A DNA stretch of 11,922 nt. Origin: Candidatus Heimdallarchaeota archaeon. GTDB taxonomy: Archaea > Asgardarchaeota > Heimdallarchaeia > Heimdallarchaeales > Kariarchaeaceae. The notes under the pieces were generated by a model. The model did not search any database. It was given only the letters and a program-made list of their open reading frames with translations, and was not told the DNA's origin. This document shows, piece by piece, positions 2,113-11,513 of the stretch (positions within the stretch are counted from its first letter, which is position 1; every line of letters begins with the position of its first letter). The stretch spans positions 1 through 11,922 of the forward strand of contig JASBSB010000009.1 in assembly GCA_030149205.1 (NCBI GenBank), read 5' to 3'. A program made the translations under genes and the position numbers.

Positions 2113-3024
2113 ATGGTGACAGAGCAAATGACTATGAGTAGATGGAAAATCTGGATACTCGCTATCCGTCCAAAAACTCTCCCAGCAGCAGTCAGTCCAG
2201 TGATTGTGGGGACAGCATTAGCGTATCATGACCACAAATTTAGGCTATTCATTGCTACTGCTGCATTGGTTGGTTCATTACTGCTCCAGATTCTTTCAAA
2301 TTTGGCAAATGATTATTATGATTTCATCAAAGGGGTTGATGATCACACACGCGTCGGACCAGTACGGGTAACTCAGTCTGGACTATTAACGCCAATACAG
2401 GTCAGAAATGGAGCTATTGTTGTCACATTATTAGCCATTGTTGATGGATTATATCTTATTTTTTCTAATGGAGGCCTGGTTGTGTTATTAATAGGGTTGT
2501 TCTCCATCATTTTTGCTATCATCTACAGTGGAGGTCCTTATCCACTAAGTAGTTTAGGTTTAGGTGATATCTTTGTTTTCATATTCTTTGGATTAATAGC
2601 TGTGCCTGGAACATATTATGTTCAGGCGTTGACTGTTACCACAGAGGTTTTTATCGCCTCAATCCCAGCAGGTCTACTCATCACTGCAATATTGGTTGTC
2701 AATAATTACAGGGATTTTGATAATGATTTGAAGGCAAACAAAAGAACCTTTGCCCATTTTCTGGGAAAACGTGGGACACGGTACTATTACTCATTTCTTG
2801 TCTTTGTTCCGTTTACCGTCTCATTTTTGTTCATTGGATTATATCCAAACAGTTTCAATTTTTGGTTGCTTTTGCCACTAATTTCCCTACCTCTTGCATT
2901 TCAGTTGGTCAAGCAGATCCACACTACAACTGAACTTCAAAGGTTTAACGTACTGTTGGGAAAGACCGCAATGTTTGGATTACTATTCAACCTTTTATTC
3001 TCATTGGGATTAATTTTAAGTTAG
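2113..3024 (+). CDS. menA: 1,4-dihydroxy-2-naphthoate prenyltransferase (UbiA superfamily, MenA)
   Basis: W..AIRPKTLPAA N-terminus, NLANDYYDFIKGVD, YSGGPYPL...GLGD..VF.FFG and VNNYRD..ND..A.KRT motifs, and multiple TM helices. The real start is probably ATG 2128, which has GGTGA 8 nt upstream. Confidence 0.93.
   Translation: MVTEQMTMSRWKIWILAIRPKTLPAAVSPVIVGTALAYHDHKFRLFIATAALVGSLLLQILSNLANDYYDFIKGVDDHTRVGPVRVTQSGLLTPIQVRNGAIVVTLLAIVDGLYLIFSNGGLVVLLIGLFSIIFAIIYSGGPYPLSSLGLGDIFVFIFFGLIAVPGTYYVQALTVTTEVFIASIPAGLLITAILVVNNYRDFDNDLKANKRTFAHFLGKRGTRYYYSFLVFVPFTVSFLFIGLYPNSFNFWLLLPLISLPLAFQLVKQIHTTTELQRFNVLLGKTAMFGLLFNLLFSLGLILS
2115..2119 (+). promoter_or_regulatory. Shine-Dalgarno-like GGTGA for menA (ATG 2128)
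   Basis: GGTGA is complementary to the 16S 3' tail UCACC, with an 8-nt spacer to the in-frame ATG at 2128. Confidence 0.55.
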
Positions 3025-3635
3025 CTAAAAAACAAATTTTCATAAGAATCTGAACTGGACGAATGAGGTTGGATATAAAGTTGACACTCAAACTGCTTTT
3101 CATCTGTGAATAGTCCAAGCTGCACGAGAAACAGGTTTTGTCCAGATTCGTATTGAGTTAACTTTTCAAATACCTCTTCTTTGACTCCATACCTGAATTG
3201 AGAGGCAAATTTCGGCATCGTATCAATTTTCATCATCTTATTCAAAGCAGCAACATATCTCAGGAGAATATTTGAACCAACCTCTTGCATCAGGGAACTT
3301 TGAAATTCATTTAAATCTTCGAACGAATTTATACTACCGGTGTTCACATTTGATAAAAGCGACAATATATTCTTTACGGAATCTAAGGTGAATACTACAG
3401 AAAGACGATACTTTATAGGGTTCTCTATATCCAGAAAATCAAATGCAATGGAGGTTCCATCTTCTATCTCATTCTCTTTTACGATTTTTGAGACGACTCC
3501 TTGTCTAACATAAGGGATTGTCATGTCAACATCGCGTGAAAATAGTTTAGTGAGAGCGATAGCTGCGTGTCCCGCCCCTACATTACCTGCCTCTTTGAAA
3601 GCTTCAATGACTAACTCAGAAAACTTATCACTCAT
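3021..3635 (-). CDS. cheC: CheC-family CheY-P phosphatase with one intact and one degenerate site
   Basis: EAFKE15AGN18VGAGHAA.AL..L...V....P41 matches E-x2-N-x22-P exactly. The second repeat reads SLMQE118VGS. Start overlaps the cheA stop (ATGA, 3632-3635). Confidence 0.88.
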   Translation of the reverse strand: MSDKFSELVIEAFKEAGNVGAGHAAIALTKLFSRDVDMTIPYVRQGVVSKIVKENEIEDGTSIAFDFLDIENPIKYRLSVVFTLDSVKNILSLLSNVNTGSINSFEDLNEFQSSLMQEVGSNILLRYVAALNKMMKIDTMPKFASQFRYGVKEEVFEKLTQYESGQNLFLVQLGLFTDEKQFECQLYIQPHSSSSDSYENLFFS

Positions 3636-5419
3636 GCAACCACCCTGAATTTGCTTGGGTCAATAACCATCATAACTGCTTGTTCTGTTCCTGTTACCAC
3701 ACCTTCGAAGATTTCAAGAGTTACAAGAAGTGGATTTAATTTCCGAACACTTAAGAGTCTTTCATCAACAATTTCATCAACCACGAGTGCAATCTGATGT
3801 GAAGCACCTCTACAGATCAATACAAGTTCCTGAGAGTTTAGTCCGTTTTCGTTGGGATCAAATAGCTTACGTAATAAAACCAGAGGATACTTTGCATCAT
3901 CAATTTTCACCTCTCCATGTGATTCTCCCCAAAGCTTGATACCTGAAGTATCAAGCAAATAAAATGCTTTTTCAACCTCTGATGATTGTATAGAATAGAG
4001 CTGATTAGAAACACGTACTATCAAATTCTTTGAGATGATATCCTGATCGGGAATTGTAATTGTGAAGGTGGTTCCTTTGTTCTTCTCCGATTCCACAGTT
4101 ATATTTCCACCGATTTCTTCAATTTTCGACTTCGCTGCATCGAGCCCAATCCCCCTTCCAGCAACCTTTTTAGCATTTTTTCTGGTTGAAAAACCTTCTA
4201 AGAAGAGCACATCGTATTTTGAAGATAACTGACCTTGTGTTTCTGCGTCTAGTTCTTTGAACTTCTCATTTACAACCTCCTCATCGATACCTCCACCATC
4301 ATCTGAAACTTTTATGATTACTTTCCCTCTGTCAGCAATACAGCTCATTTGGATTAAACCGACAACATTTTTACCTGACTCTGTTCGCTCATGAGATGCC
4401 TCAATCCCATGAATCACTGCATTTCTTACAATTTGGGTGAGTGGGTCAATAAGAACTGTTGCTAAAGCTCGATTAATTAAAATGAATCTTCCCTGAATTT
4501 GTAATTCTGCTTCTTTTAATTCTGATTCTGCAAGACGTTTAACCATACCTGGTAACGGTTCAAGGATGCTGTTTATAGCCACTTTTCTTAATTTTCTCAA
4601 ATCTTCCTCAATATGAGAAAAAGTTGAATCAATTTGAATAAATTTACTCTTCTGTTCCACACCAATTAGGTCTCCTCTAAGGTGTTCTAACTGAGTATTC
4701 AGAATTGTCAATGCCTGTTCCAAGTTCACAAGGTCATCTGAATCTATCTTTATTGACTGTCGTCGAATAGTTGAAACATGGTTTGTTGTATCACGTTCTT
4801 TCACTTCAATGGAAACATTACTCACGCTTGGTAATTTTAGAATGCGTTGATACAATACCTCATATGGTTCTAAAGTAGCTATTTCTACCTTCATGCTTTC
4901 AAAATTTAAATCCAACATTAAATCGTCACGTGATGGAGAACTCGACCTGATGTGAGCAAATCTCTTAATAGTGTTGAGTATTGCCAAGGCTCTAGCCGTC
5001 TTAATGGCTCGATCTGCCTTGATTTCAATGTCAATTTCATAAATTTTGTTACTCTTTATCAACACCGTCTCGAAACCAATTTTTCGTTCTAACTCCTGAA
5101 CCATCTCACCTGAAGGAGGATTTATTGAAATTTCTTTTAAAAGCAATTCAATCTTTACCTCCATCTCTAGGATGGATTCAACAGTTGATGCCTGTAATGA
5201 TGTTCCTTCTTGATGTATCCTCTCCTCAATCTCAGCTATGATTCCTGCACTGGAAGTCAATCCAACCGAACTAAAAAGCCCTTTGTAGGTATGATAAGCC
5301 CGTTTTAGTTCGCTTAAATTCTTATTTGTGATTTGTTCAGAGCTTAGGTTCATTGACTGAATTTCCTCATGAAAGTTTTCTATATCAGATACCCAAGCAT
5401 CCCATTCTGTTGTACTCAA
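3632..5419 (-). CDS. cheA: CheA-type histidine kinase (P1 HPt, P2, P3 dimerisation, P4 ATPase, P5 CheW-like), compact and divergent
   Basis: AYH43TYKG (HPt); P2-like YEIDIEI...KTARAL.IL..I......SSP; SIKID (P3 start); DPLTQIVRNAVIHGIE (N-box); VSDDGGGID (G1); GFST...GRGIGLD (F/G2); KGTTFTITIP; C-terminal CheW-like ALVVDEI. TTG start with GGAGG 8 nt upstream. Confidence 0.92.
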   Translation of the reverse strand: MSTTEWDAWVSDIENFHEEIQSMNLSSEQITNKNLSELKRAYHTYKGLFSSVGLTSSAGIIAEIEERIHQEGTSLQASTVESILEMEVKIELLLKEISINPPSGEMVQELERKIGFETVLIKSNKIYEIDIEIKADRAIKTARALAILNTIKRFAHIRSSSPSRDDLMLDLNFESMKVEIATLEPYEVLYQRILKLPSVSNVSIEVKERDTTNHVSTIRRQSIKIDSDDLVNLEQALTILNTQLEHLRGDLIGVEQKSKFIQIDSTFSHIEEDLRKLRKVAINSILEPLPGMVKRLAESELKEAELQIQGRFILINRALATVLIDPLTQIVRNAVIHGIEASHERTESGKNVVGLIQMSCIADRGKVIIKVSDDGGGIDEEVVNEKFKELDAETQGQLSSKYDVLFLEGFSTRKNAKKVAGRGIGLDAAKSKIEEIGGNITVESEKNKGTTFTITIPDQDIISKNLIVRVSNQLYSIQSSEVEKAFYLLDTSGIKLWGESHGEVKIDDAKYPLVLLRKLFDPNENGLNSQELVLICRGASHQIALVVDEIVDERLLSVRKLNPLLVTLEIFEGVVTGTEQAVMMVIDPSKFRVVA

Positions 5420-5420
5420 C

Positions 5421-5786
5421 TTAGACCCCTCCTAAAACACTATCCAAGCTTTCAACAACTTCCACTGGTTCGACGGGCTTGATTAAAAAATTTAAGGCTC
5501 CAAAGCTCAATGCTTTCCTGATCATCGGTTCATGGCCTAAAGCAGTAATCACAATAATTCTTGCATTTGGGTCTTGATCGACAATTTTCTTCACCGCTAT
5601 CAGCCCATTCTGTTCGGGCATAACTATATCCATTGTAACTGCATCAGGTTGACATTTCATATATAGGTCTATGGCTTCGTTTCCATTAGATGCCTGTCCC
5701 ACAACCTCATGACCCACTTTTTCTAAAGCTATCCGTAGTTTTGTTCGCATAAAATTTGAATCGTCAACTATCATTATTCGTGCCAT
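5421..5786 (-). CDS. cheY: Single-domain response regulator CheY
   Basis: IMIVD8D9S..MR, TMD53IVMP..NG, T81A, F100 and K103P are all present. The sequence style resembles Firmicutes/Thermotoga/archaeal CheY, and it sits between cheW-like genes and cheA. Confidence 0.95.
   Translation of the reverse strand: MARIMIVDDSNFMRTKLRIALEKVGHEVVGQASNGNEAIDLYMKCQPDAVTMDIVMPEQNGLIAVKKIVDQDPNARIIVITALGHEPMIRKALSFGALNFLIKPVEPVEVVESLDSVLGGV
5428..5432 (-). promoter_or_regulatory. Shine-Dalgarno GGAGG for cheA, inside the cheY 3' end
   Basis: The minus strand reads GGAGG-GGTCTAAG-TTG, an 8-nt spacer, which supports the TTG start at 5419. Confidence 0.65.
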
Positions 5787-5792
5787 TTTACA

Positions 5793-7619
5793 TCACTTAA
5801 TTAATTTAATTGGGATTTTATTGTCCCTTATTTGTAGAAAACTGAAATTGTTCTCCACTTGTATGTTGCTTTCCTCTGCAACCACCAATCTAGAGCTATC
5901 AATGATCTTATAGACCTTGTTTGAAACTGAATAAACGTATATAGGTTGGCCATCAGTGTCAATTAAATTCTCTACTACTTCTGTACCCTCACCCTTAATT
6001 TCTTGTATTTGAGTTACATCGATCGCTAAAGTTGGAAGATTTTGATCAAAAACAACAAGAAAGCTCTTAACATCTTCCTTCCATATCTTAAACCAATCAA
6101 ATTCAAATATTTCCTGTTGATGGATTTCTATTGAATGTGACTCTTTTAATGATTCATAAACTATTTTAATCTGCTTTTTATTTAGATCGATTAATGAGAC
6201 AAAATGACTGAGGTTGGGGATGACCACAAATTCTGAACCAGTATACAGTATATCAGAGAACCAATAAGAAGCAGTTTCCTTGTTCACCAATGAGGAAAGA
6301 CTCAGTGGAGCCTCAAATCTATCAACAGAATCCCCTCTAAACTCAATTAACTGATTGTCAGTTTGGATAATGACACTAAAGATACCCATATGCGTAGAAT
6401 CTATGTTTAAATACCTTTGGAGGTCAACAGAAGGCAACATTGAACCACCGTAAAGAGAAACACCTAATTGATTATCAATTGACTTAAAGACAGGATTGAA
6501 TCGTATCTCTTTGATTTGCTCTTCTCGGAAGATTACATTAGTTTTACCAGTCGTAAGTTTAATGAATGGCTGTGTTTTAAAATCAACATTCTCATCAACA
6601 GCTTTGGGAGACCTTCTGAGGAATTTCATCCAATTGCTTACAGAGGCAGTCAATAACTTTTTTGAAAGTAGAACCTTCCGAAGATATTCGCTATTAAGGA
6701 CAAAAATTGGTGTTTGGTATTTATCTATGAAGATATTTGAATATGGTAGGTTATTTGTGTCTGATATTTCTGAGGAAGTCTCAATGAATTTTTCAATAGA
6801 AAGAGCCTCTGAAACATCTTCTACTTCAATCCCGAATTTTCTTACATCCCTACCTACTATTACTAATTTTTGTGGGGTTTTTGATGTACTCAACCCTATG
6901 ATGTCCTCAATGTTCAAAATTGGAAGGTTAATTAGGTCAAACTCAGCGACACTTTTAATCAGGCTCTCACGAAAATTTAGTTCAACTTTGTGAAGATCAT
7001 CTGGGGACATAACTCTGAAAACCTCATATTCTGGAAGTAAGATATCCCCATTCAAAAATCTAAGACGTAGAAATTTATCCTTGACTTCATCAGATTTTAA
7101 ATGAAATTTTGATACTCCAGAGATTAATTGCCTCTGACTATTGGGAGATACCTCCGTCAGACCTTTCCAGTTTATTTCTTTGAAGATTTTCTGTGTCTCA
7201 GCTTCGAGTTCTTTGTAAAGCACAGATATCACAGCACTTAGATAGAATACCGTGTAAGGTAATTCCTCTATAAGCTCGAGGACAAAGGGTAATCCTGTTT
7301 TCTTCTCAGAAGGGGGTTGGTAGAGTTTTAGTGTTCTTCTCACCCCGAGGGGCAATTTTAAACAAATTAAATACTCTTGAAATTCAAGTAGAACTAGTAT
7401 ATCATCCAGCTTGTTTGATGACTTGTAGCCATAAAAATCTAGAAGGTCAACCACCAAGCTCAACCTGTTATCAAGGATCGTAACCCCTAGAACATAATTA
7501 GAGGTTAGAGGAAGTGGAGTAATCTGGTTTTTGTAATATTGATACTCATAAATTCTTGGATTTTTATCTAATTCCAACAGAAAGCGACGTTGGTTTAGTT
7601 CAAACTCCAAAAATTCCAT
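5793..7619 (-). CDS. Tandem multi-CheW-domain protein (three full and one truncated CheW-like repeats)
   Basis: Repeat 1 (about 1-135): FLEFEL...ITPLP....VLGV..L......VVDL. Repeat 2 (about 181-315): KFLRL...LPILNIEDIIG...FGIEVEDV. Repeat 3 (about 350-478): PFIKL...IKEI...LGV..YGG.MLPSVDL. Partial repeat 4 (about 518-608): SFLVVF...LAIDVTQIQEI. Coupled to upstream cheW by a TAATG overlap at 7617-7621. Domain calls are by eye. Confidence 0.75.
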   Translation of the reverse strand: MEFLEFELNQRRFLLELDKNPRIYEYQYYKNQITPLPLTSNYVLGVTILDNRLSLVVDLLDFYGYKSSNKLDDILVLLEFQEYLICLKLPLGVRRTLKLYQPPSEKKTGLPFVLELIEELPYTVFYLSAVISVLYKELEAETQKIFKEINWKGLTEVSPNSQRQLISGVSKFHLKSDEVKDKFLRLRFLNGDILLPEYEVFRVMSPDDLHKVELNFRESLIKSVAEFDLINLPILNIEDIIGLSTSKTPQKLVIVGRDVRKFGIEVEDVSEALSIEKFIETSSEISDTNNLPYSNIFIDKYQTPIFVLNSEYLRKVLLSKKLLTASVSNWMKFLRRSPKAVDENVDFKTQPFIKLTTGKTNVIFREEQIKEIRFNPVFKSIDNQLGVSLYGGSMLPSVDLQRYLNIDSTHMGIFSVIIQTDNQLIEFRGDSVDRFEAPLSLSSLVNKETASYWFSDILYTGSEFVVIPNLSHFVSLIDLNKKQIKIVYESLKESHSIEIHQQEIFEFDWFKIWKEDVKSFLVVFDQNLPTLAIDVTQIQEIKGEGTEVVENLIDTDGQPIYVYSVSNKVYKIIDSSRLVVAEESNIQVENNFSFLQIRDNKIPIKLIK

Positions 7620-8068
7620 TAGAATACCTCTAATATATTTCCGTCTAACTTCACCAGAAAATTTTCGGTGTCCAGCATCTGCACCTCGAGTGTATCTACT
7701 GTCAGAACCTCAGCTATGACCTCCTTAAATTTGCTTGGTTTTTTTAATTTCATACTCTTATCCACTTTAGTTTTTGTGGGCAGTTCATTAATAAAAATAC
7801 CAAAAAGATTCCCTTTGTATTCCAATACCAAAACATTGGTTGTAACCGAGAATTCTAGACCACCTGAGTATTTAGGATTAAGTCGCCTTTGAAAGTTTAT
7901 CACTGGAATCAATTCTGAATTCTGGTAAAGTATACCAGCTATTACCTCAGGTACTCTCGGGATTTGCATAAAGTTAGTCTCTGAAACTAAAACTACCTCT
8001 TTCACAATTTTCTCGTCAATGCCAAAAAAACTTTCCCCAGATCTAAACACTAATATTTCCTCGTACAC
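7619..8068 (-). CDS. cheW: CheW-like coupling protein
   Basis: ILVFR.G...FGI.....KEVV......QIPRVPEVIAGI.....LIPVINF...L...VLVL.....LFGIFINE fits the CheW pattern. GTG start with GAGGA 7 nt upstream. First gene of the operon. Confidence 0.85.
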   Translation of the reverse strand: MYEEILVFRSGESFFGIDEKIVKEVVLVSETNFMQIPRVPEVIAGILYQNSELIPVINFQRRLNPKYSGGLEFSVTTNVLVLEYKGNLFGIFINELPTKTKVDKSMKLKKPSKFKEVIAEVLTVDTLEVQMLDTENFLVKLDGNILEVF

Positions 8069-8343: not shown

Positions 8344-8823
8344 TTATTTAGAATCTGCTGATACTAACTCGAGAAGTTCTATTCCATGTTTATTCAATCC
8401 ATATTTAGACCCTCCACCTCTGATACCATTGTAAATGACCTCTTCAACCTTACCTTCCTCATTTATGATAAAGGTCACCCGATCAGAAAGTTTTGTAATT
8501 ACATAGTTCTTAAAAACACCAAATTGTTTACTGATCTTTCCATCAGGATCTGGAACCAAGGTATATTCAAGTTTATAGGTTTCTGCAAACTTCTTCATCG
8601 TTTCTTCATTATCAGTTGATATTCCAAACACCTCTACATTCCTTTCTTTTAAATCAGCATAGGTATCCTGTAATGAACAAGCTTCTGCAGTACAACCCTT
8701 AGTGAAAGCTTTTGGAAAGAAAAACACAATTTTTCTCCCCTTCACATCAAGAAAGCTCATTGAACGACCTTCTTTTGTCGAAAATTCAAAATTTGGACAA
8801 GTTTCACCTGCTTGCAAGACCAT
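8344..8823 (-). CDS. bcp: Peroxiredoxin, BCP/PrxQ subfamily (CxxxxC type)
   Basis: FP37KAFT41KGC44TAEAC49 gives PxxxTxxC with a resolving Cys five residues downstream. GIS.D and DRVTFII..EG motifs are also present. Confidence 0.95.
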   Translation of the reverse strand: MVLQAGETCPNFEFSTKEGRSMSFLDVKGRKIVFFFPKAFTKGCTAEACSLQDTYADLKERNVEVFGISTDNEETMKKFAETYKLEYTLVPDPDGKISKQFGVFKNYVITKLSDRVTFIINEEGKVEEVIYNGIRGGGSKYGLNKHGIELLELVSADSK

Positions 8824-8966: not shown

Positions 8967-11513
8967 TTAAATTTGTAATACATCAGCAATCATCAAGAAT
9001 TCATCTGGATATCCAAAAAATTCATGATGAGCATAAATACCTAGTATTAGAAGACCATGATATCCATCAGGAATGAACACTGGAACTTCTTCACCTGAAC
9101 CAATAATTTGACTTGGGGAGAGATACGATGGCACCACACCAAGGTCTGTTGTTGTAATTTCAAGTCTAAAGGCAGTGCCAGAGGAGTCATAAATATCAAA
9201 GCCTACGATTATGATTGTAAACTCTCCACTTTGAAGGTACATAAAAACAGCCTCAGGAGCATTAAGTCCGGCACCTGCTGTGACAAAGTGTCCTGTCGAG
9301 TTGAAAATATAGAAGTCTAAATCGTCGGTTCCATAGTATCTGTAATCTCGTTCCCAGATAAGTTCCACTGATGCAAAGTCAAAAACATAATCGGGAATTG
9401 AAAATGTATAGGATTGAATCTCACCCTCTGTAATCCACCCAGTTGTTCTTGAAAACGTACCAGGCCAGATACCTACAGTAGTATTCGCAGGAATACCATC
9501 ATTCACAATTGAAATTTCACCTTCATCTTGTTCGAAATATGTTTCGGTTACCTCAATGATTAAACTATCAATGGTTAAATCACTCCATGAGGTAAATTCA
9601 TTTTCAATGGTAAGTCGAATTATCCCTTGCTCAAAGGTGAATGATTTTAATTTACCAACTTCGTAATCACCTGTGGGTAACCAAGAAAAGGCATAATAAT
9701 TACCTCGTATGCCATTATGCATTGCTGTTGAGAGATAAACAAACGCATTGTTTCCTAGAAGTGGATTCATTGATGAACCAAATTGGGTATTCCTTATTTT
9801 TACTGATAAAATTGCAGTAGTTGAAGGTACCTCGAATGCAAAATATGCAAATTGAGATGGCTTTATGCGAATATTGTCTATTGTGTTTGTCCCATAGTCA
9901 AGTTCCACTAGATCCATGTATTCCTCAAAACTCTCTTCAACCAACCCATGGTTAATCCCATGATCCTCATGCTCAAATTCATGTTCTTCTGATTGAAGAT
10001 ACTTTATTGAATTATATAAGTTCATATATCCATGGCCTTGCTCAATCTGTGAAAAGCCAGGTATTAAGTCTGCCCCAGCAGATAGTGCCTCTTTTATATC
10101 TTCCGCACCTAGATTCAACCCATTAAGATCACTGTATGCTGACAACAGAGCTGCACCACCTGCTACTACTGGTGAGGAGTAAGAGGTACCTGAACCAAAA
10201 GCTAGACCATAATAGAAGATTCCTCCAAGGTTGAGTGAACCTGTTGCAACTAAATCAGGTTTTGCCCTTCCATCTGAAGTCGGTCCTCTACTTGAGAAAG
10301 AAGTGATTGACTTTTCATTCCCTTTATAAAAGTAATCAGCGTTTCCAAAAATATATTCTCCAAAAACTTTCATTTGAACGGGAGTTGAAGCAGCACCAAC
10401 AGTGATAGCTGAGATTGCTGTTCCCGGAGACCCAATTTGAAGTGGATTAGGGCCAGAATTTCCTGCTGCTATCACAACTGCAATTCCTCGCGAGCTTGCT
10501 TCATCCACCATCAAATCCACTGGATCTTCACCAGGAATGTTACTCGCACCACCTAGGGAGAGATTTATAACATCAACGTTTTGAAGTATAGCATGCTCAA
10601 TACCAGAGAGGATGATAGCTGTTGTAGTAAACAGCGAAGCACTAAATACCTTGATTCCATAAATTGAAGCGAGTGGGGCTGTGCCAAGTAAATCTACCTG
10701 AACAAGTCCATCAGGAGTAAGTATTGCGTTTGGGTCATGATGTAAGAAGGCTTGACCGATATTTGATGAGGATGAGAATAACACCCTAGCATTAGCGGCA
10801 GCTTGAGTTGCAACAAATGTCCCATGATAAAAATTATTAGGATTGTCAAACCCCTCAAATGGAGTTCCTACATCAGGAGTTAAATCAACACCACCTATGA
10901 GTCTATCACCCAATAGAAAATTCGGAAGGACTCCGCTATCAATAATAGCTATAACCTGTCCTTCACCAGCACCTGTCATTGACCATACCTTGTTCGCCTT
11001 AGTGAGGTATGCGTTTGCATAAGCCTCAGGAAGTGTTGAGAGGTCAACAGATGAGGTAAACTTAAATGCTGAGGGGTCTATATCTGTGGTAGCCGATTCA
11101 CCTTTCAGTGCCCAATCAGTCTCAAGCGAGAGCTTTTCATTTTTATAAATCTTTTTAGTGTTTGGGCTGTTTGCAAGTTCTAATAATCTGTTACTTGGAA
11201 TTGTTGCCGCAATCAAAGATCCTAAAGTGTACTCATGAGTAATTTGACCCCCAAATCTCAAAATACTATCTTTCAAAAGGGATTCATCCCCTACACTTTC
11301 GACTATAATATCAAGATCATCTTTGTTTTCAGAAAACAAAACATCCTTTAATGAGCTGACGACTTTTGTTAATCCGTCAGTTACATTATTTTCTGGTTGT
11401 GTAATCTTAATATCATTACTAATAGTTTCAATTGAGCTCACACCCGTTAGTAACGGTAAAACGAGAATGAGACTCAAAATTATTGCTAATCGTTGTTTCA
11501 TATACAACACCAT
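8967..11513 (-). CDS. Secreted subtilisin-like serine protease (S8) with signal peptide, I9-like propeptide and C-terminal beta-rich/PPC-like domains
   Basis: Signal peptide MKQRLAIILSLILVLPLLTGVS. Catalytic IAIID192SG, H230GTFVA, AAGN352SG, FSSRGPT.DGR.KPD and GTS444YSSP.VAG. The start is probably ATG 11501, with GGTG 6 nt upstream. No C-terminal TM anchor. Confidence 0.95.
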   Translation of the reverse strand: MVLYMKQRLAIILSLILVLPLLTGVSSIETISNDIKITQPENNVTDGLTKVVSSLKDVLFSENKDDLDIIVESVGDESLLKDSILRFGGQITHEYTLGSLIAATIPSNRLLELANSPNTKKIYKNEKLSLETDWALKGESATTDIDPSAFKFTSSVDLSTLPEAYANAYLTKANKVWSMTGAGEGQVIAIIDSGVLPNFLLGDRLIGGVDLTPDVGTPFEGFDNPNNFYHGTFVATQAAANARVLFSSSSNIGQAFLHHDPNAILTPDGLVQVDLLGTAPLASIYGIKVFSASLFTTTAIILSGIEHAILQNVDVINLSLGGASNIPGEDPVDLMVDEASSRGIAVVIAAGNSGPNPLQIGSPGTAISAITVGAASTPVQMKVFGEYIFGNADYFYKGNEKSITSFSSRGPTSDGRAKPDLVATGSLNLGGIFYYGLAFGSGTSYSSPVVAGGAALLSAYSDLNGLNLGAEDIKEALSAGADLIPGFSQIEQGHGYMNLYNSIKYLQSEEHEFEHEDHGINHGLVEESFEEYMDLVELDYGTNTIDNIRIKPSQFAYFAFEVPSTTAILSVKIRNTQFGSSMNPLLGNNAFVYLSTAMHNGIRGNYYAFSWLPTGDYEVGKLKSFTFEQGIIRLTIENEFTSWSDLTIDSLIIEVTETYFEQDEGEISIVNDGIPANTTVGIWPGTFSRTTGWITEGEIQSYTFSIPDYVFDFASVELIWERDYRYYGTDDLDFYIFNSTGHFVTAGAGLNAPEAVFMYLQSGEFTIIIVGFDIYDSSGTAFRLEITTTDLGVVPSYLSPSQIIGSGEEVPVFIPDGYHGLLILGIYAHHEFFGYPDEFLMIADVLQI

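Follow-up and report, generated by a model that had tools for sequence, protein, structure and literature searches.

What does a soluble protein built largely of CheW-like domains do in the chemotaxis operon of a member of the Heimdallarchaeia, which belong to the archaea most closely related to eukaryotes? Among large signalling lattices, chemosensory arrays are understood best; in them CheW and the P5 domain of CheA form six-membered rings beneath receptor trimers of dimers, and how these CheW/P5 rings set the array geometry is still debated. To our knowledge only one multi-CheW protein, CheW3 of V. cholerae, has been examined experimentally. The stretch of DNA analysed here (the window, 11,922 nucleotides) is the entire contig C10 of a 3.3-Mb genome in 12 contigs that is 93.5% complete. 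An earlier note on it had described a 608-aa protein made only of tandem CheW-like domains, and had proposed that this protein is a scaffold able to cluster and regulate CheA without receptors.

The gene of this multi-CheW protein (P0001, 608 aa) lies on the minus strand at 5793..7619, and according to the ORF list and translation it starts with an ATG at 7619-7617 and ends with a TGA at 5795-5793. A plus-strand reading of 5793-7619 was rejected, as it is interrupted by stops throughout and the intact ORF of 608 codons is found on the minus strand. Directly upstream is a single-domain cheW gene (7619..8068, minus strand, 149 aa, Pfam CheW E 9.3e-12), which is translationally coupled to the multi-CheW gene, the cheW stop and the following ATG overlapping as TAATG. 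On the other side a 6-nt spacer separates the multi-CheW stop from cheY (5421..5786, minus strand, 121 aa, Pfam Response_reg E 4.8e-26), followed by cheA (3632..5419, minus strand, 595 aa, Pfam Hpt, P2, HATPase_c and P5/CheW domains) and by a cheC/cheX-like gene (3021..3635, minus strand, 204 aa). The last has a weak Pfam CheC match (E 0.0029, below cut-off) and its product is 32% identical to that of the CheC-position gene of a related operon. The minus-strand operon order is cheW, multi-CheW, cheY, cheA, cheC/X-like. The operon CheA is without a Pfam match to H-kinase_dim (P3) and its Hpt match is sub-threshold; in the other CheA of the genome (contig C1, 643 aa, L070:12740-14668, minus strand) all five domains are clear.

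Analysed as a whole, the protein scores 57.2 bits against Pfam PF01584 (cut-off 23.5), and the protein database already assigns this family, contrary to the expectation of the earlier note that standard annotation would probably call the protein hypothetical. Pfam alone is significant only for residues 2-87, and when the domains were scanned singly domain 1 (D1) reached 32.3 bits, with D2 (13.6 bits) and D3 (14.5 bits) both below cut-off. No other Pfam family was detected in the protein at E≤0.1, and pairwise BLAST among its four repeats, the single CheW and the P5 of the same genome gave no significant match. An alignment of eight orthologous sequences was divided into four domain alignments, A4 to A7, from which profiles were made. 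The profile of D1 (7215..7619, minus strand; residues 1-135, a full CheW-like fold followed by a helix at 127-145) matches solved CheW structures (E 1.3e-6). That of D2 (6666..7079, minus strand; residues 181-318), the best-conserved CheW domain in the family, matches T. maritima CheW 1k0s with E 1.6e-12 over 137 positions, which is the whole domain, and D2 scores 33.8 bits with an independent Heimdall CheW HMM. For D3 (6192..6575, minus strand; residues 349-476), which is CheW/P5-like, the only PDB matches are CheA P5 domains, and these are weak (E 0.11-0.72); against all 4987 ORFs of the genome the top non-self match of the D3 profile is the canonical CheW of contig C1 (E 4.8e-7). This was further supported by hhalign, which aligned D1 with D2 over 142 columns (96.5% probability, E 7e-10) and D3 with D2 over 131 columns (92% probability, E 5.7e-7).

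Structure prediction agrees with the profiles. AlphaFold run on the single sequence gave a pLDDT of only 32, and AlphaFold2 with the 8-sequence alignment gave a pLDDT of 64.5 and a pTM of 0.58, with four beta-rich domains joined by linkers that are partly helical. Between the three CheW-like modules these linkers measure 30-45 residues. The top 18 PDB matches of a Foldseek search with this model were all CheW or CheA P5, residues 177-340 could be superposed on a CheW domain (atlas model) with 150 residues aligned at an rmsd of 3.9, and residues 1-481 on a bacterial all-CheW protein of 513 aa (TM 0.50/0.57, 417 residues). Each of D1-D3 is modelled as a double beta-barrel, that is two intertwined five-stranded beta-barrels, the same fold as in single CheW and CheA P5 (PDB 2ch4, 1k0s, 1b3q, 6s1k); unlike these, the window domains are covalently linked in series and do not keep the Glu38-Arg62 pair discussed below. 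Based on sequence profiles together with the structure model, D1-D3 are CheW-like, and we are certain of a predicted architecture of three tandem CheW-like domains, i.e. CheW.III plus an add-on.

The add-on is the C-terminal module D4 (5805..6071, minus strand; residues 517-605), an all-beta domain specific to the family and conserved across the eight orthologues, for which nine strands are predicted with pLDDT 50-79. Its profile had no match among PDB sequences, hhalign matched it to neither D2 nor D3, and VIA likewise gave no support. When D4 was compared with an HMM for which only CheW domains from outside the family were used, 35 in all and taken from other families of the Heimdall group, with 1600 shuffles as control, three of the eight sequences scored above the 99th percentile of the shuffles and none above the shuffle maximum. 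In a protein-language-model search the nearest named cluster was CheW (0.86-0.87, two sequences about 20% identical), which is a result at the level of a lead only. The register relative to CheW also differs between methods, as MAFFT places D4 on the N-terminal part of CheW and the HMMs at about positions 50-100. Judged from such sequence comparisons, D4 has slightly better than even odds of being a shortened CheW derivative, and assignment of the whole protein to CheW.IV is not certain. Accordingly, the earlier description of the protein as nothing but tandem CheW-like domains holds for D1-D3 by profiles, hhalign and model and is unproven for the last 90-100 residues; of the repeats 2-4 that it took for CheW folds, the structure check bore out D2 and D3, and D4 is the one without PDB, hhalign or VIA support.

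Proteins of linked CheW domains are known from other organisms. Vass, Bourret and Foster catalogued the classes CheW.II and CheW.III and mentioned a rare CheW.IV, built of two, three and rarely four Pfam CheW-like domains only; these classes are defined by Pfam-detectable domains, about 93% of them Class 1, reach about 1-3% of the abundance of single CheW and were proposed to serve special receptors or arrays (bioRxiv 10.1101/2022.05.07.491035, 10.1101/2022.05.07.491037). As far as we could find, archaea are not mentioned in the earlier-numbered of the two papers (bioRxiv 10.1101/2022.05.07.491035). The window protein differs from the catalogued classes in that two of its three domains are singly sub-threshold in Pfam and its fourth module is not demonstrably CheW. 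In V. cholerae, VC1402, a concatenated triple CheW, forms the baseplates of the cytoplasmic F9 array together with CheA (Briegel et al. 2016, as summarised in PMC7534058 and PMC9321776). With catalogued classes and VC1402 at hand, the architecture is at least partly a known one from characterised systems, an outcome that the earlier note had named as speaking against its reading. Like CheW3 (VC1402, F9) the window protein is soluble, is encoded in a che cluster with CheA and has no Pfam domain besides its tandem CheW domains. However, it is archaeal, has an extra conserved C-terminal beta domain and lacks an Arg62 equivalent, its domains are far more divergent with only D1 passing Pfam singly, its cluster is without cheB or cheR, and a DosM-type receptor, with two MCP signalling domains, was not found by Pfam MCPsignal in the 93.5% complete genome. 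The protein is not an F9 CheW3, because no DosM-type receptor was found and because of the extra C-terminal module.

The closest counterparts are instead in related archaea. A genome search recovered syntenic orthologues from three congeneric genomes (652-669 aa) and from four more in the same GTDB family (577-867 aa). Full-length members are restricted to this GTDB family (f1), where 7 of the 11 genomes have one and the remaining four are 63-80% complete, and the order cheW, multi-CheW, cheY, cheA, cheC recurs in six other f1 genomes. The same gene order, often continued by cheD, is present in three other Heimdallarchaeia families (f2, f3 and f5), and at the position of the multi-CheW gene these encode proteins with four (751-761 aa), five (960 aa) or six (1142-1145 aa) clear CheW domains (L071-L076 and L080, in genomes G053, G050, G065, G067, G022 and G013). 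They occupy the same operon slot and the D2 profile matches their domains with up to 38 bits, but each of their domains scores 52-116 bits with a family HMM and their C-terminal domain is a full CheW, whereas the family of the window protein has three recognisable domains and the short D4 and evolves much faster. The window protein is thus a local, fast-evolving version of the CheW proteins with four to six domains that occur in the sampled Heimdallarchaeia families. That D3 and D4 correspond by position to domains 3 and 4 of the four-domain form was not supported, as the best matches of the D3 profile are domains 1 and 2. In the six-domain form, the number of domains equals that of the CheW-only hexagon of the array.

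In a sample of 301 genomes of the phylum, no multi-CheW protein was found in the other CheW-bearing Asgard class. Candidates from that class (family f14) were rejected, since frames of about 694 aa proved to be CheA and one of 661 aa a CheW-CheC-like fusion; its che cluster contains a protein of about 660 aa with an N-terminal CheW and a CheC-like region (L077:2070-4055, minus strand, and L078:9880-11859, plus strand). When 5.8 billion proteins were searched with the protein, a 4-sequence profile and the orthologue C-terminal part, only the queries themselves were returned, and an exhaustive search of 1.8 billion representatives gave one orthologue (E 4.5e-4). The alignment stayed at eight sequences because these large searches gave so few relatives. 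Contig scans, with a CheA query against genome contigs and the genus alignment against metagenome contigs, gave no matches, and we found no literature on the Heimdallarchaeial series of four to six CheW domains or on the 3+1 variant, which is not proof of absence.

We hypothesize that the protein is a multivalent CheW-type coupling or scaffold protein of the Heimdallarchaeial chemosensory system, a reading that we hold at a probability of about 65% because of the fold, the operon and the bacterial triple-CheW precedent. The protein would sit beneath the receptor tips and take up several neighbouring CheW places in the baseplate. It would bind there to the tips of membrane chemoreceptors and to two products of its own operon, the single CheW and CheA (through P5), and would in this way hold adjacent core units together, a task ascribed in bacteria to the triple CheW (CheW3) of F9 systems. 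Incorporation into the array, the identity of the ring positions filled and the role of D4 are inferred by us on these grounds, whereas the folds of the domains, the operon, the distribution among genomes and the rapid divergence are results of the analysis. A model of the complex between the multi-CheW protein and the P5 domain of the operon CheA is weakly consistent with such a contact (ipSAE 0.38, runs 0.25-0.50, best control 0.00). Of 80 solved complexes 58 passed the same mark, as did 2 of 110 mismatched pairs; the passes at ipSAE 0.60 or under, however, include only 7 of the 80 solved complexes and both passing mismatches. The runs agreed in at least 65% of contacts and the partner pLDDT was at least 78, the contacting domain being unspecified; since CheW-P5 complexes are already solved, the modelled contact may reflect memory or likeness only. 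For its three CheW-like domains the earlier proposal of a scaffold for the neighbouring CheA and CheW is thus supported by the operon context and, weakly, by this model. The receptors would be the six membrane MCPs of the genome, found by a Pfam MCPsignal search as six frames with one match each, all with TM-like segments. The six frames lie on contigs C1, C7, C8 and C9. Five of them are very short (345-404 aa), carry 2-4 N-terminal TM-like segments and are too small to hold a large sensor domain.

Three other explanations are less likely because of the points that count against each. The protein might be a negative regulator or decoy, a CheW/P5 mimic without the Glu-Arg pair that caps rings or sequesters CheA and CheW, and so damps or insulates the signalling of this second che system. 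Contig C1 carries another, more canonical cluster of CheW, CheA, CheC and CheD, and a P5 mimic would be in line with the PDB sequence matches of D3, which are P5 domains only, and with the fast divergence of the protein. The conserved Glu38-Arg62 pair of E. coli CheW is required for function but not for assembly (PMC3828127), and the equivalent of Arg62 is lost in D1-D3. When all domains were aligned with MAFFT, with D2 as aligned by HMMER to the CheW of E. coli and T. maritima serving as the anchor, the Arg62 column holds Asp in D1 and D2, Gly in D3 and Asn in the operon single CheW, and an Arg62 equivalent is kept only in the CheW of contig C1, the columns of D1 and D3 depending on this one alignment of very divergent domains and being somewhat uncertain in placement. 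A Glu38 equivalent is kept only in D3 and in the D4 motif in the same alignment. The lost Arg, like the lack of a receptor, cheB or cheR in the operon, also counts against the scaffold that we prefer. The adjoining single CheW is thus also without the Arg, so that the whole system seems shifted rather than one decoy made, and the multi-CheW gene is fixed in the operon across Heimdallarchaeia, including genomes with only that operon at the locus; we therefore consider a decoy improbable. Least probable of the three is a CheW scaffold that polymerises by itself and, independently of receptors, clusters and regulates CheA on its own. CheW-only and P5-CheW rings are established array elements, and on the whole 11.9-kb contig, operon included, Pfam detected neither an MCP gene nor cheB or cheR, but the idea that the protein could work without receptors, put forward in the earlier note, is not supported in view of the six MCP-signal genes with TM-like segments elsewhere in the genome, and in related genomes the operon type precedes cheD and lies near other che genes.

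The remaining alternative, a relic, which we rate as still more improbable than a decoy, concerns the rate of divergence. In this case the gene would be decaying or neofunctionalised under relaxed constraint in a secondary che operon, with only the fold retained and no role in an array. Between the congeners G001 and G003, CheY is 86% identical, the CheC-like protein 72%, CheA 67%, the single CheW 43% and the multi-CheW protein 35%, and between the window genome and its congeners these values fall to 72-77%, 48-53%, 45-46%, 24-31% and 23-25%, respectively. The contrast of 23-25% with 72-77% for CheY and 45% for CheA favours a relic, as do the facts that the window copy is the longest branch in its family and that the searches of 5.8 billion and 1.8 billion proteins yielded just one orthologue. 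The rapid divergence of the two scaffold proteins, far faster than that of CheY, CheA and the CheC-like protein, might reflect a loosening of constraint and not a preserved function in the lattice, a point against the scaffold reading. On the other hand, the frame is intact at 608 aa, the length and four-part layout are conserved in eight orthologues, and the tight translational coupling is retained. Identical residues are invariant in each domain, those invariant among the orthologues being Y42, G45, D58, P90, P396, W513, L521 and L578. The identities also show that the multi-CheW protein and the single CheW co-accelerate, which suggests co-evolution with the partner rather than decay.

Going beyond the multivalent scaffold that we prefer, a bolder picture may be drawn, which we regard as tentative and rather unlikely. 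Arrays of Heimdallarchaeia would have their CheW rings made largely as single polypeptides, with the six-domain form as one covalent hexagon and the four- and five-domain forms as partial ones, and the window family would have branched off and co-evolved rapidly, its short fourth module and Arg-less domains giving a lattice geometry or mode of coupling that has not been seen in bacteria. The value of the locus lies more in the class-wide pattern than in the single window gene. A series of 3+1, four, five and six linked CheW domains is fixed in the che operon of one archaeal class, and such a graded series offers a direct way to learn how many ring positions can, or have to, be linked within an array. 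The series further indicates that the chemotaxis machinery of Asgard archaea is not simply a euryarchaeal or Bacillus-type kit.

Some further features of these genomes were observed. On a contig of one orthologue-bearing genome (G004:C225) two multi-CheW frames of 600 aa (L024) and 867 aa (L013) adjoin each other with a run of N between them, and over 47 residues the first frame ends in a sequence 85% identical to that with which the second begins; the pair could stem from a tandem duplication, be parts of one much longer gene or be an artefact of scaffolding. The CheW of contig C1 (268 aa, L070:8708-9511, minus strand) has a tail of about 100 residues past the CheW domain with a weak Rho_N-like match. 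The source genome carries many small GTPase genes, and intron-free tRNA calls are scarce in it, both in keeping with an Asgard archaeon. Upstream of the che operon in the window are a Bcp-type peroxiredoxin at 8344-8823 and a subtilase of 848 aa (8967-11513, minus strand; Peptidase_S8 E 1e-40) with a signal-like N-terminus and a long C-terminal extension.
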